Positions 15,853 to 63,006 of a stretch of DNA of 64,000 bases are shown here, in pieces (the first letter of the stretch is position 1; every line of letters starts with the position of its first letter). A model generated the notes under the pieces. It was not told where the DNA came from and made no database searches. It saw only the letters and a program-made list of their open reading frames with translations. The position numbers were made by a program, and so were the translations under genes. Source of the DNA: a bacterium (lineage in GTDB: Bacteria; Bdellovibrionota_G; JALEGL01); contig JALEGL010000008.1 in NCBI GenBank assembly GCA_022763185.1, positions 67,012-131,011 on the forward strand. The letters run 5' to 3'.

Positions 15853-15854
15853 GA

Positions 15855-31554: not shown

Positions 31555-31630
31555 TGGAGCCTCCCGCCAGAATCGAACTGGCGACCTACTCATTACGAAT
31601 GAGTTGCTCTACCAACTGAGCTAGGGAGGC
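31555..31630 (-). tRNA. tRNA-Thr (anticodon CGT)
   Basis: 76-nt cloverleaf on the minus strand: acceptor stem GCCTCCC/GGGAGGC, anticodon arm ACTCA-TTCGTAA-TGAGT with CGT at loop positions 34-36, T-arm GTTCGATTC, and an encoded 3' CCA. Confidence 0.9.
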
Positions 31631-43398: not shown

Positions 43399-45807
43399 AT
43401 GAAAAAAAATAAATTAACAAAGATTCTATTGGGTGTGATTGGCTTTTTTGTACTGCTGTATGCCATCATTTTGATTTTACCTAAAAAGAGTTTAATTAGT
43501 AAAATAGAGCAACAGGTTTATCAAGCTAGCAATTTAAAACTTTCCATAGGTAATATAAGTCCGGCCTTATTTGGCATTTCTCTGGATAATGTGTCCTTAC
43601 AAGCGGAAGACAAAGACAAACTTTATATAAGTCTTGAGCATGCAAAATTTAAAATAAAGCTTTTGCCTTTATTTTCCAAAAAAGTGGTGTTTTCAAAAAT
43701 TCTACTGGACTCACCCCAGGTAAACTATGATCTAAGCTATAAATATCAATCTCCGGATGAAGATAGCAAAGACACCACTGCAGCGATAGAAAAAGAGGGT
43801 GCTATTAACTTTGAGTTAAGTCAATTGCTAATCAATAATATGAAAATTAAAGTGCATGAAGAAAATTCATTGTTGTTTACAACACATTTGGCCAAGCAAA
43901 GTTATGTCATAAAGACTCAAGGTTTGGATGTTTTTGCAATATCAGGTCATGCAGACTTTGATGAGTTGCTTTACCAAACTGCCTACGGATATTTTGGACG
44001 CGGTTTAGAGCCTAAACTGGATATAGATCTGATATACGACAATAAAAATCAGAACGCTACACTAAAGCAGTTGATGCTTGAGAGTGAGTCGATCAAAGCT
44101 GAAATGCAGGGAACATTTGAAATGCAAAATGAACCACGCTACAAGTTTAATTTGAATGCCAAGAGTGGAGAGTTAAAGCAAATTTTAGCATTTTTGCCGT
44201 CAAAAATATTTAGCGATCAGTCCATGAAATCCAGTGACGGTCAATTAATACTTGAGGCATCCTATGACGGTGGGAGCGACTACAGCAATGCTGACTTTAT
44301 GGCTAAGCTTAAATTGACTGATGGTGTTGCACGCTATAAAAAAGATATTAAAGATATTGTTCTTGATCTGGATATCGACAGTCAATCTATCACACTCAAC
44401 GCACTCAAAGCCAAAACCGATAAAAGTATGATTGATATGAAAGCAAAAATTAGCAATTATCTTAATGGTATTGAAAAAAGCCCAGTGGCTGTTTCAGCTC
44501 AATACAACTTAGACTTTGATGAGTTAAAGCAAATAGAGATGTACCCACCTGAGCATGCTTTGTCAGGAAAAGCCAAAGGTCAGATCAACATAGCTCAAAA
44601 CATAACTTCACCTCTTATGACAGGCAGACATCAATTGACGGATGTTGCGTATTCGTCAACCTCACCGGACATGAAAAACTATAAAATTAAAAGCCTGTAT
44701 GCCACCCTTGGTTTAGAAAAAAATCAAATCAACCTTGATGTCGATCGCATGCAAATAAATAATGACGAGCTTTCCATGAAGGGAAGTGTTCGAAATGTTT
44801 TAGCGTATGCCTTAGCGGATGGCTCTTTAGATTATGATATTAATGTTAATGCAAAATCTTTGGATTTGGATAAGCTTTTGCCAGAGGACCAAGAAGAAAA
44901 AAGTTCAGAAGCAGTAGATTTTAGTCCAATTAAAAAAATTAATGGGACCAGTCGATTACAGTGCAATGTTTTGCATTACAGTGACTTGGACTTAAAAAAT
45001 GTCAAAGCTGAGTTGGTTACACAAAATGGAAAAATTGACTTAAAGAACCTAAGTGCCAATGCCTTTTCAGGCTTGTTCAAAACTAACTTTAAGCTTGATG
45101 TAACAGATGAAGATAGGTTTCCTTATCAAGCCAATGTGAATGTTGATAATGTCAAATTAGATGAGTTTATAGACTATGCAAAAGTTTTTTTCCCGATAAA
45201 AATTGATAAAGTCACAAAGGTCGGGGGGCAACTTTTTAGTCAAATACAATCATCAGGAACAATTAATACAAACACACTTTTGCCTGAAATAGACTCCATA
45301 TCTTTTGAGGGGCCCATAAAAATTGTTGAAGGTTACCTTAAACAATCCGCAATACAAAAGCGCTTGGCTCAATTCATCAAGAAAGACTCATTGAAGAGTG
45401 TTGATTTTAAATCATGGAGCCAATACATTCAATTTAACAAAGGTATGTTTGAAGTTAATAAACTAGACTTTAACAGTAAAGGTATAAATCTTTCTGGTAA
45501 AGGTACTCAATCACTGACTGGGAAGGTTGATTATGATTTTAAAGTAAAACTTCCAAAAAAAGATGTTGAAGAAACATTCCCTGCTTTGGCTAAACTTAAC
45601 CCTAATGCAGAGAATATAGACATTCCTATTCAATTAACGGGATCACTCAATGAGTTAAAGGTTTCTGTGATTGAAGGCAACATCAAGCAAGTCGTGAGTG
45701 AAAAAGTAGAGAAAAAAATAGAAAAGAAAGTTGAAAAGAAAAAAGAAGAAATTAAAAATAAAACAAAAGAGGCGGTCAAGGATAAGCTCAAAGGCTTTGG
45801 TTTTTAA
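43399..45807 (+). CDS. AsmA-family protein
   Basis: N-terminal TM anchor followed by a large periplasmic region. The N-terminal approximately 110 aa align in pattern with E. coli AsmA. The C-terminus is a Lys/Glu-rich tail (VEKKIEKKVEKKKEEIKNK). Confidence 0.5.
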   Translation: MKKNKLTKILLGVIGFFVLLYAIILILPKKSLISKIEQQVYQASNLKLSIGNISPALFGISLDNVSLQAEDKDKLYISLEHAKFKIKLLPLFSKKVVFSKILLDSPQVNYDLSYKYQSPDEDSKDTTAAIEKEGAINFELSQLLINNMKIKVHEENSLLFTTHLAKQSYVIKTQGLDVFAISGHADFDELLYQTAYGYFGRGLEPKLDIDLIYDNKNQNATLKQLMLESESIKAEMQGTFEMQNEPRYKFNLNAKSGELKQILAFLPSKIFSDQSMKSSDGQLILEASYDGGSDYSNADFMAKLKLTDGVARYKKDIKDIVLDLDIDSQSITLNALKAKTDKSMIDMKAKISNYLNGIEKSPVAVSAQYNLDFDELKQIEMYPPEHALSGKAKGQINIAQNITSPLMTGRHQLTDVAYSSTSPDMKNYKIKSLYATLGLEKNQINLDVDRMQINNDELSMKGSVRNVLAYALADGSLDYDINVNAKSLDLDKLLPEDQEEKSSEAVDFSPIKKINGTSRLQCNVLHYSDLDLKNVKAELVTQNGKIDLKNLSANAFSGLFKTNFKLDVTDEDRFPYQANVNVDNVKLDEFIDYAKVFFPIKIDKVTKVGGQLFSQIQSSGTINTNTLLPEIDSISFEGPIKIVEGYLKQSAIQKRLAQFIKKDSLKSVDFKSWSQYIQFNKGMFEVNKLDFNSKGINLSGKGTQSLTGKVDYDFKVKLPKKDVEETFPALAKLNPNAENIDIPIQLTGSLNELKVSVIEGNIKQVVSEKVEKKIEKKVEKKKEEIKNKTKEAVKDKLKGFGF

Positions 45808-48155: not shown

Positions 48156-49553
48156 TTGGCAAAAATAAGTAAAATTTCTCCTGTTGTTGCAGACCGTAAA
48201 GCCGTTTTTTTGCGTTTGTACAATCAAGGAAAATTTATTGAAACCTTCCAATTGAAAAAAGGGTCTACTTTGGTGGGTAGAGACCCTTCAAATCAAATTG
48301 TGATTAAAAGTACGTTTGTATCTAGGCACCATTTTGTTATTGAAGTTTTAGATAGCGGCGTTGTTTATATACAAGATTTAAAAAGTAGAAATGGCACCTA
48401 CGTTAACCGCGAAAGAATATCAAAAATAAAACTCTCTCATAAAGATAGAGTTATTTGCGGTCCATTTGAATTTATTTTTAATCAACCCCACTTTGATAAA
48501 GAAGAAGATAGTTCAGACTCCTTAACAGATTTAGAACTTACGGATAAAAGCACGACCACAAAAAGTAAAAGCAAAAGAAAAGCAAAGAAAATGCCTTCTT
48601 TGGATCAACAAGATTCAGGTGTTTCTTTATCCATTGAATACTTAGACCATAACGATCTTGATGTACCTACGATCATTACTGGTTTAGAGTCCACAAAAGG
48701 AAGCAATGCCACAAGAGAAGCTGATATGTCAGTTTTTCCAGATAGAGTGGTGCCTTTACAAAAAACATCAAAAACGAAAGTAATTATGATGGCTTTGGCC
48801 ATGGTCGGGTTTTCTGCTGTTTTAGCTTATGGGATGTTTCTATTTCTACAAAAAAATGCACAAAAATCTCAGTTGGTCATGCAAGAAACAATGGAAGGTA
48901 CAAGTCAAGAGGACAGCACTAGTGCACAATCAATAAAACCAGTATCTAAGGTTAAGAGCAAGAATGGTGTTTCTAAAGCAAAAAAAATGACGGGTTCAAA
49001 AACCAATAAAAGAGCATCATCTAAGAAAAACTTTAAAGTCAGTGATATCTTGGGCAATATTGGCGATGAAGAAATAGATTTCTCAGGTCTGAGTAATTTA
49101 TCTAAGAGCACCAGTCAAAGAAGAAAAAATATTGCTAAAGCAATCAGTAAAGCTACGCTTTCAGTGGATGTTGAGCCACCAAAACATCAAGGCTCTTTTT
49201 TCTCATTCAATAAAGGCAAGGAAAAGAAAGTTAGTGTGGATAGTGCAAAAGAAGCGCTTAATTACCAGCGTTCAATAAAAAATCAGCTGGGTTTTGTGCA
49301 AAACTGCTTTGTTAGTTACGCTAAAAACCCTGAAAAGCCGGGTGTCATCTCATTAGAAATCAGTTTAGACAATGCAGGAAAAGTAAATCGAGAAAGAATT
49401 GACTCTGATCATTTTAAAACCAGCAGGCTAGACCAATGTTTAAAAAAAGGCGCTCAAGATATTGTAGCCGACTCAAAGCCTCCTTGGGAGGGTTTTACCG
49501 CAAGCTACAAATTTAAATTTGCCGGTGTTAAAAAGAAAAGTTTTGATTCCTAA
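48156..49553 (+). CDS. FHA-domain inner-membrane protein with AgmX/PglI-type (TonB-C-like) C-terminal domain; GltG/PglI-like
   Basis: N-terminal FHA domain (GSTLVGRDPSNQIVIKSTFVSRHHFVI...NGTYVN), one TM helix (VIMMALAMVGFSAVLAYGMFLFL), an S/K-rich linker, and a C-terminal about 100 aa (QLGFVQNCFVSY...DQCLKKG...PPWEGFTASYKFKF). That C-terminus shares its pattern with the C-terminus of the 50562-52001 product. Confidence 0.6.
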   Translation: MAKISKISPVVADRKAVFLRLYNQGKFIETFQLKKGSTLVGRDPSNQIVIKSTFVSRHHFVIEVLDSGVVYIQDLKSRNGTYVNRERISKIKLSHKDRVICGPFEFIFNQPHFDKEEDSSDSLTDLELTDKSTTTKSKSKRKAKKMPSLDQQDSGVSLSIEYLDHNDLDVPTIITGLESTKGSNATREADMSVFPDRVVPLQKTSKTKVIMMALAMVGFSAVLAYGMFLFLQKNAQKSQLVMQETMEGTSQEDSTSAQSIKPVSKVKSKNGVSKAKKMTGSKTNKRASSKKNFKVSDILGNIGDEEIDFSGLSNLSKSTSQRRKNIAKAISKATLSVDVEPPKHQGSFFSFNKGKEKKVSVDSAKEALNYQRSIKNQLGFVQNCFVSYAKNPEKPGVISLEISLDNAGKVNRERIDSDHFKTSRLDQCLKKGAQDIVADSKPPWEGFTASYKFKFAGVKKKSFDS

Positions 49554-49963
49554 AAGTTAATTTAAATACTATCGTTGTATATAAAGGTTTTATTCTAATC
49601 CTAACCTTAAGTTACGCATGCTGACGGTAATGTTTTAATTGAAAGGGTTAAAGAAACGTATATATAAAATTAGGCTGACCGGCTTTATATTTACATAGGG
49701 TGCTTTAAATTGAAGCCAATAATCAATAAATAGAGAAAAAATAATTTATATAGGCTCAAAGGATTGTTTGGCATAGCCCAATGAGAACTCGCTGCATGAA
49801 ATCTATTTTGTTCTCATAATTTGTCACGATATAAACTTGAAGTACTTCAGGCTTGGGTATTTCACAATCTTTTTTTTGCGCTAAAATCGAAACCAATCAA
49901 AATAAATAAGATAAGCTCAAGCAGTGATATCAATCAAGCCAGAGCAGTCATCACTTTCTATTA

Positions 49964-50548
49964 TTAGAAGGTATATTTGATACCAAAGGTAGGAGATATC
50001 ATGTTGACGGGTAAATCAAACTGGAAATAGCTGACTTTAAAGTACAGAGAGTAATGTCTTAATAAGGTGTAATACTCAATACCAGCAGAACCTGCTATAC
50101 TCATTTTATATTTTTCACCATCAACAAATGCCGGCCCAGTAGAAACAACACCACCACCAGCCGCTACAAAGGGGTTCCATCTCCCAATTGGTTTTTGTAG
50201 TTTTAAAAGTAGATTTCCAGAAAAGAAATTAACGCCACCTTCAAGTTGGGGGTCTTCAGGAGCGGCTTCATGAATGGCAAAGCCAAACAAGCTTTCAATG
50301 CTGATATTTTTTGAAATGTCGTATCCCATGTTGAATGATAGTGCTGTTCCAGGATTGGTTGTTGTTTCCCCCGGTAGCGTTCCATCAATGGCACCGTTGA
50401 CGATTGAGATACCTATATCAGCACCAATATAAAAGCCTTTTTCTATGTCATCGGGTAAACGTCTAAATTCTCCAAATAAGTTTTCAGCATGCAACAAAGA
50501 CGTTGTCATGAATACAGCGATAAGGCTTATTACTTTTATTTTTTTCAT
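49964..50548 (-). CDS. small outer-membrane beta-barrel protein (OmpA/OmpW-like 8-strand class)
   Basis: Signal peptide MKKIKVISLIAVFMTTSLLHA, alternating hydrophobic beta-strand pattern, and C-terminal GIKYTF ending in Phe. Confidence 0.5.
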   Translation of the reverse strand: MKKIKVISLIAVFMTTSLLHAENLFGEFRRLPDDIEKGFYIGADIGISIVNGAIDGTLPGETTTNPGTALSFNMGYDISKNISIESLFGFAIHEAAPEDPQLEGGVNFFSGNLLLKLQKPIGRWNPFVAAGGGVVSTGPAFVDGEKYKMSIAGSAGIEYYTLLRHYSLYFKVSYFQFDLPVNMISPTFGIKYTF

Positions 50549-50561
50549 AATCTCTTCTTTC

Positions 50562-52001
50562 TTAAGTTGCTAAATTAAAGGTAAATGGGTAGACCACTTC
50601 TACGACACCGCCACCAGGCTTTGGAAAGGGCATTCTTCTAACCACACGTTGAATGCAACCCTCAACAGCAGCGTTATTCATGCCCGTTTCAGCAATACTG
50701 GTGCTTGTAACTCGACCCTGTAAACCAATAACAAATCTAACAACAATTTTACCTCTTAACTTAGGTTGTCGAATAACTTGTCTTTCATAGCAAGATCGAA
50801 TTTGTCCTAGGTGGTTTCTAATAATTCTTGCAATGACATCTTTGGGAATATTACCTTGGATATAAACTTCTTCATCATCGATACTAGCAGACACGGCAAC
50901 ATTTTTTTTACCTGTTCCAAAATCAGAAAGGCCTCCCATATTTTTATTTCCGCCACCTTTACCTTTAGTTCCTAAACCTTGGCCAATTGAGGCTGTATTA
51001 TTTCCTCCACCAGACGCTGATCCTCGTATACCTTTACCTTCTCTTACAGTTGTTTCACCCGGTAAACCATGTCTTGCGTTTTTGCTGCCTAGCTTATCAA
51101 TGGACTCAGTAATATTGGAGCCAGAGCCAATTAAATCATTTAAAACAGAGTTATTATTTTTACTAAAGAAACTTAAAACACCTGTTTTGTTAACATCTAC
51201 ACGGTTGGTCTTTTTGCCGGTTCTACCTTTAACTCCACGGCCTCTGCGGCCTTCTTTGCCGCCAGCCTTTGCACCGCTACCTTCTTTGCCAACATTGCCG
51301 CGCAGCTTTTTTGAACGCACTATGGCAGGTTGGTATTTTTTCATTTCTTTGTTTTGAACAACAATTTTTTTGTATTGTTTACGTATTTTTTCAGTCTTGT
51401 CTTCCAGATCAGGTTTTGGCATGACATAAGCTAAAATAAATAATGCTAAGTGAATAGCTGCTGAGACTGCAAACCATCGAACAAAATAGGGGTCCTTAAT
51501 TTGTTGTCTCCAGGAAAAAGGTATGGCCGTTTCATCTTGCGAGACGGTTTCAAAATAAATAATGACCGTATCATAAACAAGAAAGCCTTTACTTCCAATG
51601 GGAAGTGTTGATTCTTTGTAGTTTTTTTTATCTATTCCAACTTGATCTTCAACTGCAGTCAGTTGATCGCCGTATTCTAAATAACCACTGGCATCAGGCG
51701 TGATCTTTAAGGTAATGGTTCCGTCGGTGTTGAGTTTTAAGAGATCTAGTTTTTTACTGATATAGTCAGATGGTAGTTTTACAGCAGCTTTTTTATGCGC
51801 ACCAAAATACAGAAGCTCATTTTTTTGCAGCAAGGAGTCATCAACAATCTGATTAAACGCTAAAACAGTTACGCGTAAGCGAAGTTTGTCAGAATTGTGT
51901 ATGGGCACACGTTCATTTTTATCCACCTTAAAACTAATTTTTAAGGTTTCGTCATCAAATAAGATGCTTTGATTTTTACTTCTAGGTTTTAATGGCTTCA
52001 T
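50562..52001 (-). CDS. inner-membrane protein with Gly/Lys-rich linker and AgmX/PglI-type TonB-C-like domain; GltJ/GltG-like
   Basis: About 170-aa cytoplasmic N-domain, a TM helix (FVRWFAVSAAIHLALFILAYV), and about 150 aa of G/K/R-rich low complexity. The C-terminus is IRSCYERQVIRQPKLRGKIVVRFVIG...GCIQRVVRRMPFPKPGGGVVEVVYPFTF. Its start overlaps the upstream stop (TAATG). Confidence 0.55.
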   Translation of the reverse strand: MKPLKPRSKNQSILFDDETLKISFKVDKNERVPIHNSDKLRLRVTVLAFNQIVDDSLLQKNELLYFGAHKKAAVKLPSDYISKKLDLLKLNTDGTITLKITPDASGYLEYGDQLTAVEDQVGIDKKNYKESTLPIGSKGFLVYDTVIIYFETVSQDETAIPFSWRQQIKDPYFVRWFAVSAAIHLALFILAYVMPKPDLEDKTEKIRKQYKKIVVQNKEMKKYQPAIVRSKKLRGNVGKEGSGAKAGGKEGRRGRGVKGRTGKKTNRVDVNKTGVLSFFSKNNNSVLNDLIGSGSNITESIDKLGSKNARHGLPGETTVREGKGIRGSASGGGNNTASIGQGLGTKGKGGGNKNMGGLSDFGTGKKNVAVSASIDDEEVYIQGNIPKDVIARIIRNHLGQIRSCYERQVIRQPKLRGKIVVRFVIGLQGRVTSTSIAETGMNNAAVEGCIQRVVRRMPFPKPGGGVVEVVYPFTFNLAT

Positions 52002-52267
52002 TAAAAGTCCTCAACGGATCTTATAATATTGGGAATAAAGGATTCGTCAAGATTCAATAAACGTTTAAAGTAAGTTTCAGGTCTTTCTTTGACAGTTACA
52101 CCATCAGGTTTCTTAACATTTCCTAAAATATCGACTTCATCAAAGTTATAAACCGTAACTTTGGGGTTCTTTTTTGCGCCAGTACTTTGTGCAAAAACAG
52201 TTGTTACGTTGGAACAAGCAAGAACAACTATTATTGAATAAAACAATGGGCTGAGTTTTTTTTTCAT
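52001..52267 (-). CDS. small secreted protein (88 aa), operon member
   Basis: Signal peptide. It is translationally coupled on both sides by TAATG junctions at 52267 and 52001. A GltF-like role is possible only from position. Confidence 0.35.
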   Translation of the reverse strand: MKKKLSPLFYSIIVVLACSNVTTVFAQSTGAKKNPKVTVYNFDEVDILGNVKKPDGVTVKERPETYFKRLLNLDESFIPNIIRSVEDF

Positions 52268-55200
52268 TACTTTTCTCCTCCTAAAACTTTTGGTTTAGGT
52301 TGTTTCATGGATTGTGCCTGCCTAAGCATATTATACACTGGATGCGTTTTTGGGATAGTTTTTCCTTTTAAATTAATAAAACGCTTATAGTTTCTTATGG
52401 CAGCCTGTTTGTTTTTAAGCTTTAAATGATTAATTAAACCTAAATTAAAAGCATTTTCTGCAAAATTGGGGTTAACCATGCTGATTTCTGTAAAATGTTT
52501 GTTGGCTTCCTCAATTTGGTTTTTTGCAATTAAAGCAACACCAAGATTAAGTTTAGCACTTTGATTTAAAGCCTCAATTTTCAGTGCCTTTTGATACATT
52601 TTTATAGCATCATCAAAGTTTGCATGCTCAAGGTAAATATTGCCAAGATTAATCACGGGCTCAATTAAATTTTTATCCAAATTAATGGCTGAGTTAAACT
52701 CTTTAATAGCACTGTTATAAAACCCCATCTTTAAATAAACCATACCTAGGTTATTGAATGTTTCAGCATTTTTAGGGTTGTATTTTTTTGCTTTTTGAAA
52801 GGTTAGTTCAGCAAGCTCACTTTTCCCAGTCTCATAGTAGAGTAAGCCTAAGTTATTGATGGCATAAACATTGGTTTTATTCTTTGACATAATGCCTTGA
52901 ATGTTAACCAAAGCTTTATCCTTGTTGCCAAGCTTTCTTTGAGCAGTAATGAGGTTGTTGGCTATGGTCCAGTTGTTTTTATTTTTACGCGCAACTTCAG
53001 CAAACAGACGTAAAGCATTTTTATCATTGCTGGCCAGGGATGAATAAGCCAAGTTCAACAAAATTGATCTATCTGAAGGACGAATCAAAGAAGCATTCTC
53101 ATATGCTTGTTTTGCTTTTCTGTGCAAGTCAAGTAAGCGGTATATATCAGCTAAGCGTGTGTATGCAGACACTGCTCTTGGGTTTGCATTGATGGCGGCT
53201 TCACTTTTTCTGATCTGAGAAGATAAAGATTCTGCTGAAGAAGTTTTTGCTTGGTCAGGGACCAGAAACTCAGATCGATCAGTCACAACACTTTTTGTTT
53301 CTGGCTTCAATAGCCCCGCTTTTGAATTAAAGGCAATAAGCGGTTCATTGATAAACCATTGGATATAAGATTCACCTTGACGCTGAGGATATTTATCCGG
53401 TTTGTATTGCGTTAGGTTATCATATGCTTTAACAGTCCAGTCATTGTAAACATTAAGCTCAAAGGCTTTAGTTATTGCTTTTTCATAGGCTTCAATTGCC
53501 TTTTGCTCAATAGGTAAGGCTCTATTCTGTAGTTCCTCTTGATACATTTGCTCTTGTTCCATGCTCAATCCATTAGGAATTGGGGCGTTGAACAAGGCCA
53601 AACTGAAGTTTTGGTAAATAAGACCAACATGGTATAGAGATTTTACACCAACTTCAGCATCTCCAAGATCAATGATAGAAAAGTAATCATCTTTAAGTTC
53701 TTTTAAAAGCTTAGCTTTTCTTTCAATCGAAGAAGCAAGAGCTCTTTGAGGCATTCTAAACTTTATGGCATTGAAGGCATCAAATTTATCCTGAGTAAGC
53801 TCAAATTGCGCCTTGGCTGCGTAAGATACACCCGATTTATAGCGCTTTGCGTGCTTGACAGCTTCATTGTATGAGGCGTTTCTAGCATTGAGGTTACCAA
53901 GGTTTTTCTGGGCAAAGCCACGTCTATAAGAGGCTTCGGCAAACTTTTCTTTGTGTTTTGGGTATCGTTTCGGAAAATTATAAAAAACAGCGCTGGCTTT
54001 TTTCCAGTCTTTCATTTTTTCATAAATGAGTCCAGTTGCAAAGTAGGCATCATGAACGTCATCAGATTTTGGATAGCGACTGATGTACATCTTGTAATTT
54101 TTTAAGGACTGATCGTATTGCTTTAAGTGTTCTCTGTACAATGCAGCATTGTACAAAGCTGCTGAAGCAAGTTCAGATTTTGGAAAGCGTGTGGCCAAGA
54201 TTTCAAACTGTTCTGAAGCATTTTGATAGTCCAGTTTATTGTCAAAGTGGGTTGCCAAGGCCAAAATCATTTTAGGCACCAAGGGAGACTTTGAATAGTC
54301 TTTTAAAAAACGTCTGGATGTCTTAAGGGCAGCATTAGAATCATTACCGTTCAAATAATCAATTGCTGCGTTGTACAAGGCTTTGTCAGCAAATTTTGAT
54401 TCAGGGTATTTGTTGGCTAAGCTTTCATATTTTCTTGCGGCTTCAATAAATTTGCTTTTTTCTTCCAAGCCTTTGGCTTTTTGGAAAATAGACCCTTGAA
54501 TTAGCTCAAGCATGAGCTTTTTATTTTCTGGGGTGGCAAAGCTTTTTACACGCAGATAACTTGAAGCATATTTTTCAAGGTTGTCCCAGTCTTTTTGAAT
54601 ATTGTAAATATCTAAAATCAGGTGTCTTGAGGCATTGGCAGCGGGAGAGTTTGGATAACGCCTAATGACATCAAAGAATATTTTTTGAGCTGTATCAAAT
54701 TGATTATAGTTGTAATAAAGTTGGGCAATTTGAAAATAGACTTTTGAAGCTCGTTCATCTTTGGGATAACGTTTTTGATAAGCCGAATCAGCAGCAATTA
54801 GCCTTTTTGCATAGTTTGAAAGCGGTGTACTAGCATAGGTATCACTTTTTTTATTTTTGATTGTTTTTTCAACCGTCGCATAATAGGCTTCTTCTAGACG
54901 GCTTAGTGAATCGATTAAACCAATCAAGGCAAGTTGGTTTTTTGCACCATCTTTTTGTGCTTTAAGCATAGCCGCGTACTGCTCAGCGGACTTGTCATAA
55001 ATTTTATTTTTAAATAAGAGATTTGCGTATAAAAAACGCATTTCATAGCCATTTTTATGGTTAGCAAACCATTTTACATAATTGGCATAAAACTTCAGAG
55101 CAAGTTGCGTATAGTTTTTTGCTTTGACCTTATTAGTGGTCTCACTTTTTTGTGCCATTTCATGATGATGCTTTGATAAGAACCGTGCATAAACTTCAGA

Positions 55201-56361
55201 GCGGTTATAGGCATAGTCTAAAGAATCGCTGCGACCTTTGTTTTGTCTATGCCAGGCAGATCCAGGCAAATATCTTGGCATGAAGATTTGCATTTCACGC
55301 ATGGCGCGCTGGAGCTGCTCACTTTTTTCATAAGATTCAATAATTTTTGAGTGATGTCTGGGGGCATCAGGGTGATAAGGGTCTAAAGAAATGAGTTTCT
55401 TTAAGGCATTAACCGCTTTGTTGTACTCAGATTTTTCAAAGTAGATATTGGCTAATTTTTCAATAACCAAACGAGCATACTCAGGTTCACCGATGGATAC
55501 AAAATAGCGTCGGGCCGGTTCAATCAGACCCAGATCTGAGTAAAAGAGTATAAGATCTTTAAGCGCCTCTCTACGTAAGTTGATCTCACTTTCTTTGTCT
55601 TTAGAAATTTTAACTACTTTCTGCATGACTTTAAGGGCGCCATTAACGTTGCTTTTATTGTAGTAGCACCAAGATATCTTATACAGAGCACTGGTTTTAA
55701 ATTGATTTTCTGATTTTAAAACAACACCGTAAGCATTGATGGCTTTATTAAATGACCGGTTATTGAAATAATAATCGCCAAGAGTCATATAAGCACCGGT
55801 AGCATATTTACTTTTTGGAAAGCGCTTAATTAACAGTTTAAGGTACTTGACCGCGTCTTTTGAGTTGATTTCACTGGCATGAAAACCTGCCAAAAACAGA
55901 ACTTCATCTAAGCGGTCATAGTTTGGCGCAATTTTAACAATTTTTTTATAAAGGTTAAACGATCGTTCACCAGAAAACTTCGGCTCAACAGGTTCCTTGG
56001 CAATTTTCTTTTTTAAATAGAGATCATATCTTCGCTCAAACTCATCCATTTTTTTAAAGTATTCTGAGCGTTCATACAACCAATACAAATCAGCCATTCT
56101 AAAATAGACTTCAGCTGTCTGATTGGCTGGTTGCTTACGTTTTGCAAGTCTATTTAATAGGCGCAACTCTTCACGAATTTTTGCTGCCAATGCGGCGTCA
56201 ACCTTATAGTCTGGAATATTAAATGCCTTAAAAATAGGGTTGGATATTTGTCCAGTTCTTTGTTCAGCTTTTTTTTCAACTGCAAAAGACGGTTGAACTG
56301 GGCTGATTAAATTAAGGACTAGGCAAAGAACGAGTATTTTTTTTAAATCTGTTAAGCTCAA
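52267..56361 (-). CDS. giant TPR-repeat protein (1364 aa) with signal peptide; GltD/AgmU-like
   Basis: N-terminal signal peptide, then TPR-like repeats across the whole length (recurrent AxxxY/F...G.Y.A patterns). It is comparable in size to the myxobacterial AgmU/GltD TPR protein. Confidence 0.55.
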   Translation of the reverse strand: MSLTDLKKILVLCLVLNLISPVQPSFAVEKKAEQRTGQISNPIFKAFNIPDYKVDAALAAKIREELRLLNRLAKRKQPANQTAEVYFRMADLYWLYERSEYFKKMDEFERRYDLYLKKKIAKEPVEPKFSGERSFNLYKKIVKIAPNYDRLDEVLFLAGFHASEINSKDAVKYLKLLIKRFPKSKYATGAYMTLGDYYFNNRSFNKAINAYGVVLKSENQFKTSALYKISWCYYNKSNVNGALKVMQKVVKISKDKESEINLRREALKDLILFYSDLGLIEPARRYFVSIGEPEYARLVIEKLANIYFEKSEYNKAVNALKKLISLDPYHPDAPRHHSKIIESYEKSEQLQRAMREMQIFMPRYLPGSAWHRQNKGRSDSLDYAYNRSEVYARFLSKHHHEMAQKSETTNKVKAKNYTQLALKFYANYVKWFANHKNGYEMRFLYANLLFKNKIYDKSAEQYAAMLKAQKDGAKNQLALIGLIDSLSRLEEAYYATVEKTIKNKKSDTYASTPLSNYAKRLIAADSAYQKRYPKDERASKVYFQIAQLYYNYNQFDTAQKIFFDVIRRYPNSPAANASRHLILDIYNIQKDWDNLEKYASSYLRVKSFATPENKKLMLELIQGSIFQKAKGLEEKSKFIEAARKYESLANKYPESKFADKALYNAAIDYLNGNDSNAALKTSRRFLKDYSKSPLVPKMILALATHFDNKLDYQNASEQFEILATRFPKSELASAALYNAALYREHLKQYDQSLKNYKMYISRYPKSDDVHDAYFATGLIYEKMKDWKKASAVFYNFPKRYPKHKEKFAEASYRRGFAQKNLGNLNARNASYNEAVKHAKRYKSGVSYAAKAQFELTQDKFDAFNAIKFRMPQRALASSIERKAKLLKELKDDYFSIIDLGDAEVGVKSLYHVGLIYQNFSLALFNAPIPNGLSMEQEQMYQEELQNRALPIEQKAIEAYEKAITKAFELNVYNDWTVKAYDNLTQYKPDKYPQRQGESYIQWFINEPLIAFNSKAGLLKPETKSVVTDRSEFLVPDQAKTSSAESLSSQIRKSEAAINANPRAVSAYTRLADIYRLLDLHRKAKQAYENASLIRPSDRSILLNLAYSSLASNDKNALRLFAEVARKNKNNWTIANNLITAQRKLGNKDKALVNIQGIMSKNKTNVYAINNLGLLYYETGKSELAELTFQKAKKYNPKNAETFNNLGMVYLKMGFYNSAIKEFNSAINLDKNLIEPVINLGNIYLEHANFDDAIKMYQKALKIEALNQSAKLNLGVALIAKNQIEEANKHFTEISMVNPNFAENAFNLGLINHLKLKNKQAAIRNYKRFINLKGKTIPKTHPVYNMLRQAQSMKQPKPKVLGGEK

Positions 56362-56391
56362 GTATGTTCTCCAAACTACAAAGTAGCGCTA

Positions 56392-58065
56392 CTACTTTTT
56401 CTCTGAGGTTTTGTCCTTACATATAGACTTAAGATTATACAGGTAATAGCCGGTTTCGTCAGCCCAATATTCACCGGTGTAATCCCACCAAACCATAGAC
56501 TCTTTCAAACTGTCTGTGAACTCGGGTTTTATAAGGTTGGCATTGATATCCACTGGAGGTGCAAGGCGTAATGAGCGTGTTTGTAGAATTTTTCTTTCTG
56601 TGCTGACAATCTCATATCTTAAAAAGTCTTTTAAGGTAAAAAAGTCTTCTATTAATTGTCGGGTTTGTTTCAGCTTTTGCCCGGCTAACCAGCTGGCTTT
56701 TTGAGTCAACTCACGTTCTTTTTGTGTGATCAGGTTAATGATTAGTTTAGCGTTGTTTTGATCAAGTTTTCCTAAAAGCTCGCGTTCTTTTTGTAAAGAT
56801 TCTATATACTGGTGAATTCCCCAGAAGTCTCTATTGGCACTGGCAAGATTGAACAGGTTTCTATAGCGATAGACTAACTTTCCAGATCTTTCTCTTTGTT
56901 TGCCTGTCAAAGCGTTATAATAACGCTTGGGAGACCGGTTCTTTTTAGCAAAGTCATCAATTTGACGAGCAATTCCTTTAAACTCACCTTCAACCCCGCT
57001 AAGCGCGGTTAAAGCATCATCATACAAACATAACTCCAAAAATATAGCGCCTTTGAGTAAGTACGATTTTAAAAAGTAAACCTGTTCGTAAAAAGGAGAG
57101 TTAACTGAGTGCAAAACAGATAAAGAGGCATTAAACTGACGCATCTTAAACAAAGCCCAACTTGATTCATACAGACCTTGTGGGTAATAATTATTGTCTT
57201 TTTCAACTTTTTTGTAATAGACAATAGCCAACGGATAGTTGCGTTGCTCATAGTATATCCGGCCCAAAGCAAGATTGGCAAGCTGTTTGAGGCGAACTTC
57301 TTCATAGTAGACTTTGTTTTTGCGTTCGTTAGAGATGCTTTTATAAAACTCTATGGCTTTTGAATAACTTTCGTTTTTTATGGCAATTGCCCCTAATAAA
57401 TAGCGAGAAGCCAAATACAGGCGATTGTTTTTTGATATTGAATATAAAAGTTTAATAGCTCTTCGGTAATTTTTTTTATGATACAAGTCTTTTGCAACAA
57501 AGTAACGAAACTCTTCTTTTAATGACTTAGGAACTTTGTTGTCACTGATGGTTGATGCCAAGTATAAGATGAGTTCATCATCTTTTAAATGTTGAGCAAT
57601 GGCAATAGATTGCCGTAAGGACTCATGCGTATAAACTCGGAGCTTGTCATTTTCAACAATGTCCACATAATACAAAAGAGAGGCATAATAGGCTCCCATT
57701 TGACTTAAGCTTTTTGCAATGTAGTATTTTGAATAGCCATACTCGGGAAAAGACTTGAAACGTGAAGTATTGAGGATTTTACTGAAGATTATAAAAGACC
57801 TTTCATAGTTTTGCTTTTTATATTCTATACGACCTTCATTAAGTGTGTCGACCAGTCGGGTATACAAAGGGTTGTTCCGTACCAAACGAGATCGTTTTTC
57901 CAGTTCACGATCAATTCTTCTTTCAACCAAGTTAGACTTTTTTTGGTTTTGGCCAATCTGCTCAATGTTTTGTTTTGAGCGAGCGCAGCCTGATAAGGCA
58001 AGGCTGGCGCACAGCAGTGAAAAACCTATAAGTGAGAAGCTGGATTTGGTTTTTTTAAAAAGCAT
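56392..58065 (-). CDS. TPR-repeat lipoprotein (557 aa); GltE/AglT-like
   Basis: Lipobox LALSGC and TPR-like repeats (YYIAKSL..., AIEFYK..., LAIVYYKK...). Confidence 0.5.
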   Translation of the reverse strand: MLFKKTKSSFSLIGFSLLCASLALSGCARSKQNIEQIGQNQKKSNLVERRIDRELEKRSRLVRNNPLYTRLVDTLNEGRIEYKKQNYERSFIIFSKILNTSRFKSFPEYGYSKYYIAKSLSQMGAYYASLLYYVDIVENDKLRVYTHESLRQSIAIAQHLKDDELILYLASTISDNKVPKSLKEEFRYFVAKDLYHKKNYRRAIKLLYSISKNNRLYLASRYLLGAIAIKNESYSKAIEFYKSISNERKNKVYYEEVRLKQLANLALGRIYYEQRNYPLAIVYYKKVEKDNNYYPQGLYESSWALFKMRQFNASLSVLHSVNSPFYEQVYFLKSYLLKGAIFLELCLYDDALTALSGVEGEFKGIARQIDDFAKKNRSPKRYYNALTGKQRERSGKLVYRYRNLFNLASANRDFWGIHQYIESLQKERELLGKLDQNNAKLIINLITQKERELTQKASWLAGQKLKQTRQLIEDFFTLKDFLRYEIVSTERKILQTRSLRLAPPVDINANLIKPEFTDSLKESMVWWDYTGEYWADETGYYLYNLKSICKDKTSEKK

Positions 58066-58071
58066 TATATA

Positions 58072-58806
58072 TTAGTCCTTTGGGGTTGAAGGTAAAAAGA
58101 ATGACAAACCAATGGAATAAACTCTGTTATTTGCGATCTGATTGAATGGCGCTCCTTCACGTACTGTGAAGTTTCTAAAATCAAGCTTTAAAGCTGTAGA
58201 TTGGTTTAAAAATATTTTTAAACCCGTACCCACATTGATTCCGAAGCGTTGAGATCGCTCATTGTCAAACATACCGGCACCGGCAAGAAAGTACCAGTCA
58301 AAATGGTAGATTTTTTTTGAGAATATAGCGAACTTACCATAAATTGGAGAAAAAATAAGGTTAGCAAAATAAATGTTTTTGGCTGGATCGGGAGCAGGGT
58401 CAAGATCAACACCGCAGGTTGATACGGGGTTCATCATCAAGTCAGTGACGATCAAGTTTGGAGGGCAGGGGACATTTTGTAAGTCATCAATAATGGCACG
58501 TTCTTGGTGAAAAACTCTTGAATAAGATGCTTCAATGGCAAAACCTTCTTTAATATGGAAAGTAGGTCTGATTTGCACAAACTCGTAGAACAAAAATTGG
58601 TTGTCAGCATTGATACCAAGGTCAAAACCTATTTCTGCGCGTCCTTTTTTTCTAAAAACACGTCTTTGAACAACATCGATACCTTCTTTTCTGTAAGAAC
58701 CTATGGAAGTATTGGTGTTTTTATTTTTAGTTTGTGAAACAGCGAGATTTGGTGCTGCAAAAAGTGCTGCAAGCAAAATACCAGTGAACGTTACTTTTAT
58801 ATTCAT
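58072..58806 (-). CDS. outer-membrane beta-barrel protein, first gene of the TPR operon
   Basis: Signal peptide begins at the internal Met (MNIKVTFTGILLAALFAAPNLAVSQ; the ORF is open to 58884). The alternating amphipathic beta-strand pattern runs to the C-terminus. Confidence 0.45.
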   Translation of the reverse strand: MNIKVTFTGILLAALFAAPNLAVSQTKNKNTNTSIGSYRKEGIDVVQRRVFRKKGRAEIGFDLGINADNQFLFYEFVQIRPTFHIKEGFAIEASYSRVFHQERAIIDDLQNVPCPPNLIVTDLMMNPVSTCGVDLDPAPDPAKNIYFANLIFSPIYGKFAIFSKKIYHFDWYFLAGAGMFDNERSQRFGINVGTGLKIFLNQSTALKLDFRNFTVREGAPFNQIANNRVYSIGLSFFLPSTPKD

Positions 58807-59045
58807 TATGCCCTCATGATTGATGTTTTTAGAAATATAACTTGTGGACCAATTTTTACCATGGTTCTTTGTTAAGAGTAACAAAAGCTAAAATCTTTTT
58901 CAATTTTATTGAATAAATTCAACACAATAATTGTTAAGCCCTAGAGCAAATTAAAGACCTAAAAAAGTAGACTTTTTGTAAAGTTAGCTTGAGTCAAGTC
59001 TGTTGTGCAGATAAAAGAATGGTGAGGTAAGTTTAAAAAAACTGT

Positions 59046-60044
59046 ATGCTTAATAAAACAAAACACAATACTGTAAAGCGTTCAACGGCGCACTCACAGC
59101 TTTTTCGTCAAACCAAAGCGTTTTTAAAGACGCATAAAATTTTAAATAAAAGTAAGGTTGTTGCTATTTCTGGTGGTGTAGATTCAGTCGTCTTATTTTT
59201 TATGATGGCTGAAATATCAAAGCAAGAAGACTTAGGTCTACCGCTACCTGTGTATATATCCCATCAACAAAGAGATAAAAAGGAAGAAAGTAAAGATATA
59301 GAAGTCATAGAAAAATTACTCGCACGCTATGAACTTGAACTTTGTATCAAGCCTTTAAAAGTGAAGAAGAGCATACTGTCTGAAGAGCAGTTAAGATACT
59401 TGCGTTATGATGCACTGCTTGAGTATGCGCAAGAAAAAAAATGTGAGTGTATAGTTAGTGGCCACCATGAAGATGATCAAATTGAAAATTTTTTTATTCG
59501 ACTTTTTTCTGGGGCACATTTTCAAGGTTTGTCAGGGATGGCTGAAAAGTCTAGAGAATACTTCTATAAACCTTTTTTAAATGTACCAAAAAAAACTTTG
59601 CTTAGTGTGGCAAAAGATAATGACTTGTTGTTTAATCTTGACTCTAGTAATGATGATACAGGTTTTACAAGAAATCACATCAGAAATATTTTGCTCCCAT
59701 TCTTAAGTTCACACTATGGCAACCAATACAAAACCAATATTTTAAGGTTTGCTCAAGATGCAAAGGATATTGTAAATCACCTAAAGTCAGATGTTGATGA
59801 CATGCTTCGAGTTAGTAAAATAGAAGAGGGATGTTTTTTAAGAAAACCTTTGTTGGTTTTTTCAGATTTGCAATTAAAGTTTTTTTTTAGATTTATCTTT
59901 GATGAAAAAAGCGATCAACTTAATGCTGATCAACTCAGCGCAATGGTTCACTTGTTACGTAAAGGTGAGGGCTATTACAGCTTGACCAACAAAGCTATCT
60001 ATAAAGTCCAAGAAGATAAAATATCAGTTCAATACAGAACTTGA
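59046..60044 (+). CDS. tilS: tRNA(Ile)-lysidine synthetase
   Basis: PP-loop SGGVDS motif near the N-terminus, 332 aa, directly upstream of ftsH (conserved neighbourhood). Confidence 0.8.
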   Translation: MLNKTKHNTVKRSTAHSQLFRQTKAFLKTHKILNKSKVVAISGGVDSVVLFFMMAEISKQEDLGLPLPVYISHQQRDKKEESKDIEVIEKLLARYELELCIKPLKVKKSILSEEQLRYLRYDALLEYAQEKKCECIVSGHHEDDQIENFFIRLFSGAHFQGLSGMAEKSREYFYKPFLNVPKKTLLSVAKDNDLLFNLDSSNDDTGFTRNHIRNILLPFLSSHYGNQYKTNILRFAQDAKDIVNHLKSDVDDMLRVSKIEEGCFLRKPLLVFSDLQLKFFFRFIFDEKSDQLNADQLSAMVHLLRKGEGYYSLTNKAIYKVQEDKISVQYRT

Positions 60045-60215
60045 TTAATTGTTTGTATGAGCTCAGACTTATCTAAAAAAATATGGGTAAAATTGAAAAT
60101 ACAAAAGCAACAAAAAAAATAAACGGTTAAAGAACTTAATACTGTATTTTATAATCGTAATGTTAGATAAAGTAGAACACAGTTTAGTTTTAAACATTCT
60201 TATGAGAGGTATGTT

Positions 60216-62057
60216 TTGAAGTCAAATCGAGTTTTTTTATGGTTATTGTTGGCAGTATTGTTTTTTTTGGTTTTTCAATCTTTTGAAAACTTTTCGCAGG
60301 AAAAACCTTTGGAGTTGTCATACAGTGACTTTAGAAAAAGTGTTAGAGCGGGACATGTTAAAAGTATTGAAGTTGGTCAGGAAAGATTAAAAGGTCAGTT
60401 TTTTTCTAAAAAAGAAAATGAGAGTATCTCTTCTGAAATAGATGAAAAAATATTTACAAGCAACTGGTTTGGTGAGGCAGATGAGCTGGTACAGTTTCTT
60501 GAAGAAAATGCTGTTGAAGATATAAAATTAGAATCTTTTAGCAGGCAGGGGTTTTTAAGGAATATTCTGCTCTGGACAGTGCCCTTTATTTTTGGATTTA
60601 TTTTATTGTTGTTTTTATTGCGGCAAGTTCAGTCTGGTAATGGCAAAGCCATGAGCTTTGGTAAATCTAAGATAAGAATTGCTGACCCTAAAAAAACGAG
60701 AGTGACCTTTGCAGATGTTGCTGGGGTTGAAGAAGCAAAAGAAGAACTTGAAGAGGTTATCGACTTTTTAAAATCACCTAAAAAATATACGGTGCTTGGC
60801 GCTAAAATACCAAAAGGGGTCATGTTGGTAGGAGCCCCAGGAACAGGTAAAACACTGTTGGCTAAAGCAGTTGCGGGTGAGGCGCATGTTCCTTTTTTAA
60901 CAATATCTGGTTCTGATTTTGTGGAGATGTTTGTTGGTGTTGGTGCTTCTCGCGTACGTGACTTATTTGAACAAGCCAAAAAATCAGCACCGTGTATTGT
61001 GTTTGTTGATGAAATCGATGCTGTAGGAAGAAAACGAGGAGCTGGTTTAGGTGGCGGTCATGATGAGAGAGAGCAAACTTTAAATCAACTGTTAGTGGAA
61101 ATGGATGGTTTTGAAGACAACAATGGCATAATCATGATGGCGGCAACCAACCGTCCAGATGTATTAGACTCTGCCTTGTTAAGACCAGGGCGTTTTGATC
61201 GACAAGTTATTGTATCTAGACCTGACTTGAAGGGTAGAGAGGGAATATTAAGAGTTCATACCAAAAACACACCTTTAAATGAAGACGTTGATCTTAACAC
61301 CTTAGCAAGAGCAACATCAGGTTTTACAGGTGCAGACATACATAATCTTGTAAATGAAGCGGCTTTGATGGCCGCTAAACAAGGCTTGAAAACAATTACT
61401 ATGGATTGTTTTGAAGAAGCCAAAGATAAAGTTATTTTGGGCAAGGAAAGAAAAACAACAATCATGAATGAACATGATAAAAAACTGACTTCATACCATG
61501 AAGCTGGGCATGCTTTGGTCGCTAAGCTTTTGCCAGACACAGACCCCGTTCATAAAGTGACCATTATTCCCAGGGGTATGGCTCTAGGGGTAACCCATCA
61601 AATGCCAACTGAAGATCGCTATACTTTAAGTCAAAATCAAGCTGAGTCTAGTATAGCCATATTAATGGGAGGACGTTTGGCAGAAGAGATTGTTTTTAAA
61701 ATGAAGTGTAACGGCGCATCCAATGACATTGAAAAAGCAACCGAACTAGCAAGAAGAATGGTTTGTGAATGGGGAATGAGCAGCATTTTAGGACCCATTG
61801 CTTTTGGTCAAAATGATCAAGAAATTTTTCTAGCCAAAGAAGTTGGGCATCAATCCAACTACAGTGAGAAAACGGCTCAGCAAGTTGATGCTGAAATTAA
61901 AAAAATCATTGATAGAAACTATAAAAAAGCAAAAGATTTGCTGCAAAAAAACAGAAAAACTTTAGATAAAATTGCTTTGACTTTACTTGAAAAAGAAACT
62001 TTATCAGGAAAAGATTTGGATGTTTTGATGGCAGGACAGGAACTGTCTAAGGCTTAA
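60216..62057 (+). CDS. ftsH: ATP-dependent zinc metalloprotease FtsH
   Basis: Two N-terminal TM helices, AAA Walker [17 protein letters not shown] region, and Zn-binding HEAGHALV. Confidence 0.95.
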
Positions 62058-62220
62058 CCAATAGTAAAGGGCATCAATAACCAAATAATTTGAGAATATT
62101 TTATGTCTGAGTAATCTTCATTAAGAAATATATGTAATTTATTTGCTGGAGAGCGTTTGCTTCTGATAGACTATAAAATACAGTGTCAATGCAATCTATA
62201 GATAGTTTAAAAGAATCCTG

Positions 62221-63006
62221 ATGATAGAAATGCTGCAATCCATTGTAGATTATTTTACCTCTCATTCAATTATTGATTTAATCGATATCATTGCCGTATC
62301 GCTGATTGTTTTTGCTTTTTTACGTTTTATTAAAGGAACAAGAGCAATATACATGCTGATAGGCTTAAGCTTTGCCTTATTGGTTTTTTGGTTGTCTTTG
62401 GTGTTTAATTTGCAGACCCTGAATTGGATTTTATCGCATTTACTCAGTAGCTTAGTGTTTATATTGATTATATTATTTCAAGCCGAAATTAGAAGAATGC
62501 TAACACGCGTGGGTAGAGCCCCAGTGTTTTCATTTCTTGATACAGCCAATGAATCAAGAGCCATTGAAGAGTTGGTTAAAGCGTGTACATCTTTGGCCAA
62601 TAGAAAGATAGGTGCATTGATTGTTATTCAAAAAGAAGCAGATGTCATGGAGTATATTGATGTGGGAGTCAAGCTCGATGCACTGGTTTCAAAAGAGTTA
62701 ATCTCAAGTATCTTTTTACCCTCATCGCCTATTCATGATGGAGCAATCGTTGTTAAGCAAGATCAAATTTTAGCTGCCGGGTGTTTTTTACCCTTATTGA
62801 TGTCAAGCAAGATCAACAAGAATCTTGGTACACGTCATAGAGCTGCTGTTGGTATTACAGAAGAAACCGATGCATTGGTGATTGTTGTTTCTGAAGAGAA
62901 AGGGTGGATTTCAATAGCTAAAGAAGGCCAACTCTTAAGTGGTATAGAAGCAACTAAACTAAAAGAGCTCTTAGCTCAGAATATGCTTTTTGGAGCAAAA
63001 GCATGA
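62221..63006 (+). CDS. cdaA: diadenylate cyclase CdaA (DacA)
   Basis: Three N-terminal TM helices followed by a DAC domain with DGA (HDGAIVV) and GTRHRAA motifs. Confidence 0.9.
   Translation: MIEMLQSIVDYFTSHSIIDLIDIIAVSLIVFAFLRFIKGTRAIYMLIGLSFALLVFWLSLVFNLQTLNWILSHLLSSLVFILIILFQAEIRRMLTRVGRAPVFSFLDTANESRAIEELVKACTSLANRKIGALIVIQKEADVMEYIDVGVKLDALVSKELISSIFLPSSPIHDGAIVVKQDQILAAGCFLPLLMSSKINKNLGTRHRAAVGITEETDALVIVVSEEKGWISIAKEGQLLSGIEATKLKELLAQNMLFGAKA

Follow-up and report, generated by a model that had tools for sequence, protein, structure and literature searches.

A Glt/Nfs-family operon with a predicted GltD::GltE fusion and a convergent FHA-domain gene in an uncultured lineage of the Bdellovibrionota

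The window analyzed here, a 64-kb stretch of a bacterial contig (JALEGL010000008.1 of assembly GCA_022763185.1, positions 67,012 to 131,011), carries a six-gene operon on the minus strand and a seventh gene on the plus strand that faces the end of the operon. The operon is predicted to consist of gltA/B, gltC, a gltD::gltE fusion, gltF, gltG and gltH in this order and is placed in the Glt/Nfs family, which has been known since 2011. This machine family drives gliding (Agl-Glt) and spore-coat assembly (Agl-Nfs) in Myxococcus. To our knowledge, Agl-Glt/Nfs is the only focal-adhesion-type motility and surface-transport machine in bacteria. The seventh gene encodes a protein that consists of an FHA domain, a transmembrane (TM) helix and an AgmX/PglI-type C-terminal domain. 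A program-made table of open reading frames (ORFs) verified all seven genes at the coordinates and lengths given in an earlier reading of the window (hereafter the original prediction). The inventory proposed there, which comprises FHA, TonB-C/AgmX-PglI and tetratricopeptide repeat (TPR) domains, outer-membrane beta-barrels and a small secreted protein, was confirmed by Pfam and NCBIfam. In NCBIfam, five genes of the operon match specific models, and the remaining one, the barrel gene, matches at the family level.

The operon is tightly packed. The intergenic gaps of 6, 30, -1, -1 and 13 nucleotides (nt) were reproduced from the coordinates, and the two consecutive TAATG stop/start overlaps described originally were found by reading both -1 junctions. 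The gltF gene overlaps each of its neighbors by 1 nt through these junctions, and Shine-Dalgarno-like motifs precede the overlapping starts (AGGAGG before gltF and GAGGA before gltG). The FHA gene (48156-49553, plus strand) had been described as divergent from the operon. Divergent transcription was rejected because the coordinates give a tail-to-tail, convergent arrangement, in which the FHA gene ends at 49553 (+) and the operon ends at 49964 (-) on the two sides of an AT-rich 410-nt spacer (49554-49963). A simple scan detected no terminator-like hairpin in the spacer, Rfam has no match in it, and Rfam and tRNA scans are empty across the locus. The divergent partner of the operon is tilS (59046-60044, +), with which the operon shares its upstream region (58807-59045), the putative promoter region. 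Promoter-like matches across the locus occur at chance level (32 found and 33.6 expected). Given that both promoter and terminator counts stay at the level of shuffled sequence, no promoter or terminator was assigned.

The first gene of the operon is predicted to encode a single-copy outer-membrane beta-barrel of the GltA/GltB family. The barrel matches the NCBIfam model TIGR04565 (OMP_myx_plus) with 90 bits against a cut-off of 60, and its counterparts with 44-94% identity occupy the same position in related loci. The ORF table lists this gene mechanically with a TTG start (58072-58884, -; 270 amino acids (aa)). However, its start is most likely ATG 58806 (58072-58806; 244 aa), because a GAGGG motif lies 5-9 nt upstream, the signal peptide opens there, and NCBI calls the corresponding gene of a close relative (locus L084) at 244 aa. 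A single A/B barrel gene is present in the window and in the related loci L001-L008, and two tandem copies are found in 45 of 69 more distant loci. The second gene (56392-58065, -) encodes a putative GltC-like TPR lipoprotein of 557 aa. The NCBIfam gliding_GltC model aligns with this protein over model positions 122-622 of 622 (179 bits; E 1.6e-52) but below its equivalog cut-off of 450. The protein contains a lipobox, LSGC, at residues 24-27, the cysteine of which is kept in five of six relatives, and the gltC position in related loci is invariably between the barrel gene and gltD.

Two small proteins are assigned through their profile matches and positions. The 88-aa product of the gltF-like gene (52001-52267, -) matches the NCBIfam gliding_CglF model, CglF being the older name of GltF, with E 4.2e-9 and 36 bits (cut-off 90) over residues 25-87 of 88. 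It also matches Pyxidicoccus GltF in BLASTP (2e-6), and both its size and its conserved slot between the E and G genes fit GltF/CglF. The last gene of the operon (49964-50548, -) probably encodes a GltH/CglE-like small outer-membrane beta-barrel of 194 aa, which has a signal peptide and a C-terminus that ends in KYTF. This protein scores 71.5 bits against the NCBIfam gliding_CglE model, just above the cut-off of 70, and is 44-88% identical to the corresponding barrels of L001, L002, L005 and L007. Its gene follows gltG, as in the Pyxidicoccus G1 cluster (L076) and the Myxococcales locus L077. CglE is the older name of GltH (PMC9946355).

The third gene (52267-56361, -; TTG start) encodes a 1364-aa protein with a type I signal peptide, which is predicted to be a fusion of GltD and GltE. 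The GltD-like part (residues 19-1014; 53320-56307, -) has 50% identity to the GltD of L002, which is a separate protein of 1020 aa. Its residues 54-992 align with Pyxidicoccus (L076) GltD at 26% identity (E 6e-87) and also match the Myxococcus loci L080-L082 (E about 1e-82). No NCBIfam GltD model matches the 1364-aa protein, for which only generic YbgF/CpoB- and BamD-type TPR matches are obtained, and thus the GltD assignment relies on homology and synteny. The GltE-like TPR part (residues 1057-1348; 52318-53193, -) is 41% identical to residues 71-363 of L002 GltE and matches the NCBIfam gliding_GltE model with 88.7 bits (E 3.8e-25; cut-off 225). The same model matches the C-terminus of the full-length protein (E 5e-24), and residues 1082-1352 align with Pyxidicoccus GltE at 23% identity (E 7e-21).

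Comparison with unfused GltE proteins locates the junction of the fusion. The gltD and gltE genes are separate in L002, L005 and L007, and the unfused GltE proteins begin with the lipoboxes VSGC, FSAC and LQAC. In the window, L001, L003, L004 and L083/L084, D::E forms a single ORF, and the lipobox is absent in the window, L001, L003 and L004. A Cys-free linker of ~42 aa (residues 1015-1056; 53194-53319, -) stands in for the signal peptide and lipobox of free GltE, and the lipid anchor is lost. When residues 700-1364 were searched against cluster representatives, 175,954 matches were obtained, which were mostly generic TPR proteins; among the best 150 of 1.84 billion, just one 50%-identity cluster representative (P0003) aligned continuously across the D/E junction. 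A frameshift artefact was considered as an origin of the fusion and rejected, given that the fusion is present in independent assemblies. The fusion agrees with the contact between the GltD C-terminus and GltE that has been predicted with AlphaFold in the bacterial focal-adhesion model (PMC11761067).

The fifth gene (50562-52001, -) encodes a 479-aa protein that is predicted to be a GltG orthologue without the N-terminal FHA domain. The NCBIfam GltG model matches it with 164.6 bits (equivalog cut-off 650) over model positions 197-648 of 650, whereas the GltJ model matches its C-terminal domain alone with 35.5 bits. On this comparison, the AgmX/GltJ-like identity that had been given to this protein in the original prediction was rejected. 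With the AgmX/PglI model myxo_SS_tail (cut-off 40), the C-terminal domain reaches 103 bits, and the protein matches TIGR01352 tonB_Cterm with 31.4 (cut-off 27.1) and Pfam TonB_C with 19.4 (cut-off 24.6). The NCBI record of an identical protein is named 'TonB family protein'.

An AlphaFold2 model of the 479-aa protein, which was built from 23 homologues, comprises an all-beta domain at residues 12-154 and, after the TM helix at 171-193, a Gly-rich linker that is disordered (210-378) and a C-terminal domain of the alpha/beta type (380-477). Foldseek retrieves FHA folds for residues 12-154 and the C-terminal domains of TonB, HasB, FusB and TolA for the C-terminus. Pfam FHA has no match on the 479-aa protein or on any of the 23 full-length homologues. 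The invariant columns of the N-terminal domain (L42-R43-V44, D55, G67, G106, G139 and F150) form no phosphothreonine (pThr)-binding motif. The model and Foldseek place a cryptic FHA-like beta domain at residues 12-154. In the TM helix, W176-x3-S180-x3-H184 is invariant in 23 of 23 homologues. The S-x3-H element represents the Ser/His half of the motor-binding SHLS motif of TonB and TolA (PMC12204202), the L and S positions of which are not kept, and it is absent from Pyxidicoccus GltG, Bdellovibrionaceae GltG and the 465-aa product of the FHA gene. The linker, although predicted to be disordered by AlphaFold, contains more than 30 invariant Gly positions across the 23 sequences (residues about 230-370) and conserved motifs such as EGxGxxAxGxEGRRG and GKGxxGxxxGGG, and it is Gly-rich rather than Pro-rich. 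This conservation suggests a binding segment and possibly a stretch that wraps GltD. In Myxococcus, residues 190-640 of GltG contain a central FHA domain and a TM helix that are predicted to bind the AglR pentamer, and an extra N-terminal FHA domain binds GltI (PMC11761067).

What is the identity of the 465-aa protein encoded by the convergent gene? Its canonical FHA domain (residues 17-109; Pfam E 1.6e-19) precedes a TM helix at about 209-231, and its C-terminal domain (361-455) has an alpha-beta-beta-alpha-beta order. Each of 10 sequences of this family, for which about 10 full-length members were found, has the pThr-binding motifs G41-R42, S56-R57-H58-H59 and N79-G80-T81 without change, and the FHA fold of the AlphaFold2 model was recognized by Foldseek (E 3e-7). 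The full 465-aa model gave FHA matches only in Foldseek, so that the C-terminal fold is assigned from the order of secondary structure elements, a hidden Markov model match and hhalign. The myxo_SS_tail match of this domain (E 3.8e-7) reaches 30 bits, and that of the L002 orthologue reaches 44.5 bits. The original prediction that both C-terminal domains belong to the AgmX/PglI type thus stands against the cut-off of 40 for the 479-aa protein and for the orthologue of the 465-aa protein, but not for the 465-aa protein itself. An hhalign comparison of the 465-aa and GltG-family C-terminal domains gives a probability of 93.3% (E 2.7e-7), direct BLASTP between both domains is marginal (E 0.002), and two Cys residues are invariant in both families. 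The GltJ model has no match on the 465-aa protein. Its GltG-like label in the original prediction is a misassignment, and its GltG match runs through the FHA domain only. NCBI annotates an identical 465-aa protein as 'FHA domain-containing protein'.

The FHA gene follows gltH in convergent orientation in L002/L006, L005 and L083/L084, that is, in five of the six relatives with a readable downstream flank. This adjacency is held at 25-40% identity despite differing outer neighbors. Downstream of gltH in L007 (17384-17875, +) lies a 163-aa ORF with a signal-peptide-like start and a tandem Cys-rich heptad repeat, 'GEANSCK'. We regard the 465-aa protein, with moderate confidence, as a probable accessory subunit that is restricted to this lineage.

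The family assignment of the operon is supported by synteny across two phyla. The same operon is present in at least eight related loci with 35-94% protein identity, and the A/B-C-D-E-(F)-G backbone recurs in about 70 more distant loci of Myxococcota and Bdellovibrionota. The Pyxidicoccus locus L076 is a verified G1 cluster, the GltE, CglF, GltG and CglE matches of which (750, 143, 1072 and 180 bits, respectively) are all above the equivalog cut-offs, and BLAST finds partners in it for the window GltD, GltE, GltF, GltG and GltH proteins. The neighborhood of the TPR proteins is accordingly conserved as far as this cluster. The original prediction of a Glt/Agl-like envelope complex is borne out by concurring profile, synteny and fold evidence, and two further details need revision. 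The seven genes do not correspond to a gltD-E-F-G-H-I-J set, given that GltI and GltJ are missing and that two genes, the GltA/B barrel and gltC, are of G2-cluster types. Furthermore, the gene order does not deviate from that of Myxococcus, because D-E-F-G-H is colinear with G1 and the whole operon with nfsA-H. Judged by its sequence, the locus is a real and conserved Glt/Nfs-family operon and a recognizable member of a family already known. The nearest relative by name is an Oligoflexia metagenome-assembled genome (MAG), GCA_035326705.1, which has the same locus and flanks. The other relatives are Bdellovibrionota/Bdellovibrionales MAGs, the GltD::GltE proteins of which are at most 51% identical. 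A tilS–ftsH–cdaA–ybbR(cdaR) block (59046-63938, +) flanks the operon, as it does in relatives of only 45-50% identity (L002); this shared flank suggests vertical inheritance of the glt cluster at one fixed site of the chromosome.

The Agl-Glt system of Myxococcus is encoded by the clusters G1 (gltD-J), G2 (gltK-B-A-C) and M1 (aglRQS), and the window contains predicted homologues of GltA/B, C, D, E, F, G and H. The D-E-F-G-H genes are colinear in the window and in Myxococcus/Pyxidicoccus, and no motor is linked to the cluster in either Myxococcus or the window lineage. The window GltG resembles residues 190-640 of Myxococcus GltG in its layout of an FHA-like domain, TM helix, disordered linker and TonB-like C-terminal domain. 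However, G1-type and G2-type genes are merged into one operon in the window, GltI, GltJ (ZnR/GYF), GltK and CglB are lacking, and identities in the aligned parts are 23-45%. The S-x3-H element of the window GltG also distinguishes it from Pyxidicoccus GltG. The Nfs system of Myxococcus xanthus (nfsA-H) shares with the window a single cluster in the A/B-C-D-E-F-G-H order that is free of GltI, GltJ and GltK counterparts, and its motor is likewise not in the cluster but encoded elsewhere (PMC3858216). The window differs from Nfs in having one A/B barrel instead of two, a fused D::E, a GltG without the N-terminal FHA domain and an extra gene for an FHA–TM–C-terminal-domain protein. The Glt/Nfs split reflects a duplication inside Myxococcales (PMC3169522, PMC3858216). 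Because the window comes from a different phylum and this duplication is specific to Myxococcales, the operon is not considered to be an Nfs orthologue.

Within the same phylum, the expanded core of the Bdellovibrio type (Bd0828-0838; L071) has the same barrel-GltC-GltD-GltE-(F)-GltG backbone. In the Bdellovibrionaceae-type loci L047, L058, L060, L071 and L073-L075, a gltG that keeps its N-terminal FHA domain is followed directly by a MotA/ExbB gene and two ExbD genes. LptC/LptA-like and LptB-like ABC genes come after the ExbD genes in L071 (14126-17982, +), as in the other loci of this type. These clusters clearly represent a second, different Glt architecture within the phylum. In contrast, the window lineage has no motor linked to the cluster, a GltH/CglE-like barrel after gltG and an FHA domain on a separate protein, and the D::E fusion is a feature of the subclade of the window. 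Luciano et al. reported that GltH is absent from Bdellovibrio (PMC3169522). The 479-aa protein also resembles TonB and TolA, with which it shares a TM helix, a long linker, an alpha/beta C-terminal domain and the S-x3-H part of SHLS. It differs from them by an FHA-like cytoplasmic domain that precedes the TM helix, a Gly-rich rather than Pro-rich or helical linker, a C-terminal domain of the two-Cys AgmX/PglI subtype, the absence of adjacent ExbBD/TolQR genes, and partners that are Glt proteins.

We propose, with a probability of about 0.6, that the products of the operon are the outer-membrane, periplasmic and inner-membrane components of a trans-envelope force transducer of the Glt/Nfs family and that the most likely output of this machine is surface gliding. 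The GltG TM helix and its FHA-like cytoplasmic domain would dock onto a proton-driven motor of the TolQR/ExbBD/AglRQS type that is encoded elsewhere. The Gly-rich periplasmic linker and TonB-like C-terminal domain of GltG would bind the GltD scaffold, here fused to GltE, and GltF and the lipoprotein GltC would bridge the scaffold to an outer-membrane platform of one GltA/B-type and one GltH-type barrel. The FHA–TM–AgmX/PglI protein may act as a second inner-membrane subunit that provides the pThr-binding FHA domain missing from the GltG of this lineage. With its own C-terminal domain bound to GltD, it would probably connect the periplasmic scaffold with Ser/Thr-kinase signaling or with a partner in the cytoplasm, similar to GltJ or to the N-terminal FHA domain of Myxococcus GltG. 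The gene content, homologies, domain folds, synteny and fusion are direct results, as is the lack of a motor in the window, and from them we infer all of these protein contacts, the energy source and the motility output. Gliding is favored as the output because the model organism of the phylum glides and because the locus has putative 'Group A' additions. Bdellovibrio is a glider that carries expanded Glt core sets, and Luciano et al. tied the Group A additions (the A/B barrel, GltF and GltH) to the change that turned the core complex into a machine for motility (PMC3169522).

Several observations weigh against this proposal. MotA/ExbB and ExbD genes were not found in the window by Pfam scans of all larger ORFs, and tblastn of the window with the AglR/ExbD trio of Bdellovibrionaceae gave no match, both of which agree with the original prediction that AglRQS motor genes are missing here. 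The 10-kb flanks of the cluster in relatives also contain no motor gene. The window also lacks GltI, GltJ, GltK and a CglB-like VWA adhesin, all of which Myxococcus requires for gliding. The large TPR proteins of the window all have signal peptides and match GltD::E or GltC, which leaves no GltI. GltJ consists of ZnR and GYF domains, a TM helix and a TonB-like C-terminal domain (PMC11761067), and neither a ZnR nor a GYF domain was found with Pfam and NCBIfam. No VWA domain, as a sign of GltK/CglB, was present in any Pfam-scanned ORF of the window, and this module may be encoded elsewhere in the genome. Most NCBIfam matches are far below the equivalog cut-offs (GltC 179/450, GltG 165/650, GltE 89/225 and CglF 36/90), and the operon proteins are family-level relatives rather than functionally proven orthologues. 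The C-terminal domain of the 465-aa protein stays below the curated myxo_SS_tail cut-off, and the FHA gene does not adjoin the cluster in L007. The gene set and single-operon layout resemble the non-motility Nfs system as much as Glt, the host lineage is uncultured, and a 2026 review states that the gliding machinery of Bdellovibrio is still experimentally unidentified (PMC13104615).

The likeness to Nfs leads to a serious rival, which we consider unlikely on balance, namely that the same Glt/Nfs machine has an output other than gliding. It would move or organize a surface polymer or envelope cargo in an Nfs-like surface-transport role, or it would have the role of the core complex in non-gliding Gammaproteobacteria. 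A single operon that is colinear with nfsA-H and devoid of GltI, GltJ and GltK follows the Nfs organization (PMC3858216), and the window contains neither a VWA/CglB adhesin nor GltK. Core complexes also occur in non-gliders, and the core alone is insufficient for motility according to Luciano et al. (PMC3169522). However, the Nfs-like content may reflect an ancestral layout, given that the Glt/Nfs duplication took place inside Myxococcales. Moreover, the locus possesses putative Group A additions (A/B barrel, GltF and GltH), and the sole tested species of Bdellovibrionota glides. A different and rather improbable view restricts the functional unit to the six-gene operon and regards the 465-aa FHA protein as a mere neighbor. 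The opposite strand and the 410-nt spacer would suit a bystander, as would the absence of the gene at the L007 position, the myxo_SS_tail score of 30 bits against the curated cut-off of 40 and the small family of only about 10 full-length homologues. These features contend with the homology between the C-terminal domains of this protein and GltG (hhalign 93%, E 2.7e-7), with the 44.5 bits of the orthologue, with the two Cys residues invariant in both families and with the convergent adjacency to gltH in L002/L006, L005 and L083/L084 at 25-40% identity, where the outer neighbors differ. In addition, the protein supplies exactly the FHA domain that is missing from the GltG of the lineage.

The public annotation would lead to yet another interpretation, an ordinary uptake or envelope-integrity system of the TonB/Tol-Pal type, which we consider very improbable. 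The names 'TonB family protein' (for the identical 479-aa protein) and 'tetratricopeptide repeat protein' at NCBI, the tonB_Cterm score of 31.4 against 27.1, the matches of the GltD part to YbgF/CpoB and BamD TPR models and the S-x3-H element in the TM helix all accord with such a system. Nevertheless, the most specific and best matches of five proteins are to Glt/Cgl models, and the synteny points to the Myxococcus G1 cluster rather than to tol or ton loci. TonB and TolA have neither an FHA-like cytoplasmic domain nor a Gly-rich linker or a two-Cys AgmX/PglI domain, and no ExbBD/TolQR, TolB, Pal or TonB-dependent receptor gene was found adjacent to the operon by Pfam scans. Returning to the proposed force transducer, we tentatively envisage a stripped-down and rewired Glt machine, although we hold this elaboration to be doubtful. 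GltG would have shed the GltI-binding FHA domain and would plug, through its S-x3-H TM helix, into a generic TolQR/ExbBD motor rather than a dedicated, linked AglRQS motor. The stand-alone FHA protein would couple a pThr signal to GltD in a GltJ-like role, and the D::E fusion would serve as Rosetta-stone support.

The remaining genes of the window, which has a GC content of about 34-39%, are housekeeping genes as judged by Pfam, including nqr, thyA/folA, leuS, topA, ftsH and cdaA. An operon for an NqrA-F-type Na+-translocating NADH:quinone oxidoreductase (12867-19924, -) contains NqrA, NQR2/RnfD, FMN_bind, two Rnf-Nqr subunits and a Fer2/FAD/NAD subunit, followed by ApbE, and an H+-pyrophosphatase is encoded at 24508-26571. 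The FHA gene is preceded, at a distance of about 2.3 kb, by a gene (43399-45807, +) for an 802-aa protein of the AsmA family, an envelope lipid-transport family, and this gene is conserved at the corresponding place in L083/L084. Pfam gave no match at the thresholds used for five ORFs of 152-388 aa (9442-10038, -; 26760-27806, +; 35705-36757, -; 36850-38016, +; 40523-40981, +). The sole RNA gene detected in the window encodes tRNA-Thr(CGT) (31555-31630, -).

The locus is not a new kind of system, and the general picture of the machine is unchanged, but its architectural variations are informative, and their details are of use for comparative reconstruction and for the choice of minimal systems. 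There is room to improve the public annotations of the identical proteins, such as 'TonB family protein' and 'FHA domain-containing protein'. The locus adds a compact and well-conserved Glt variant from an uncultured lineage and contradicts the view that Bdellovibrionota lack GltH-like barrels. It also shows an FHA function split onto a separate TonB-like protein. If our reading is true, the natural D::E fusion would provide independent support of the Rosetta-stone type for the contact that has been predicted between GltE and the C-terminus of GltD.

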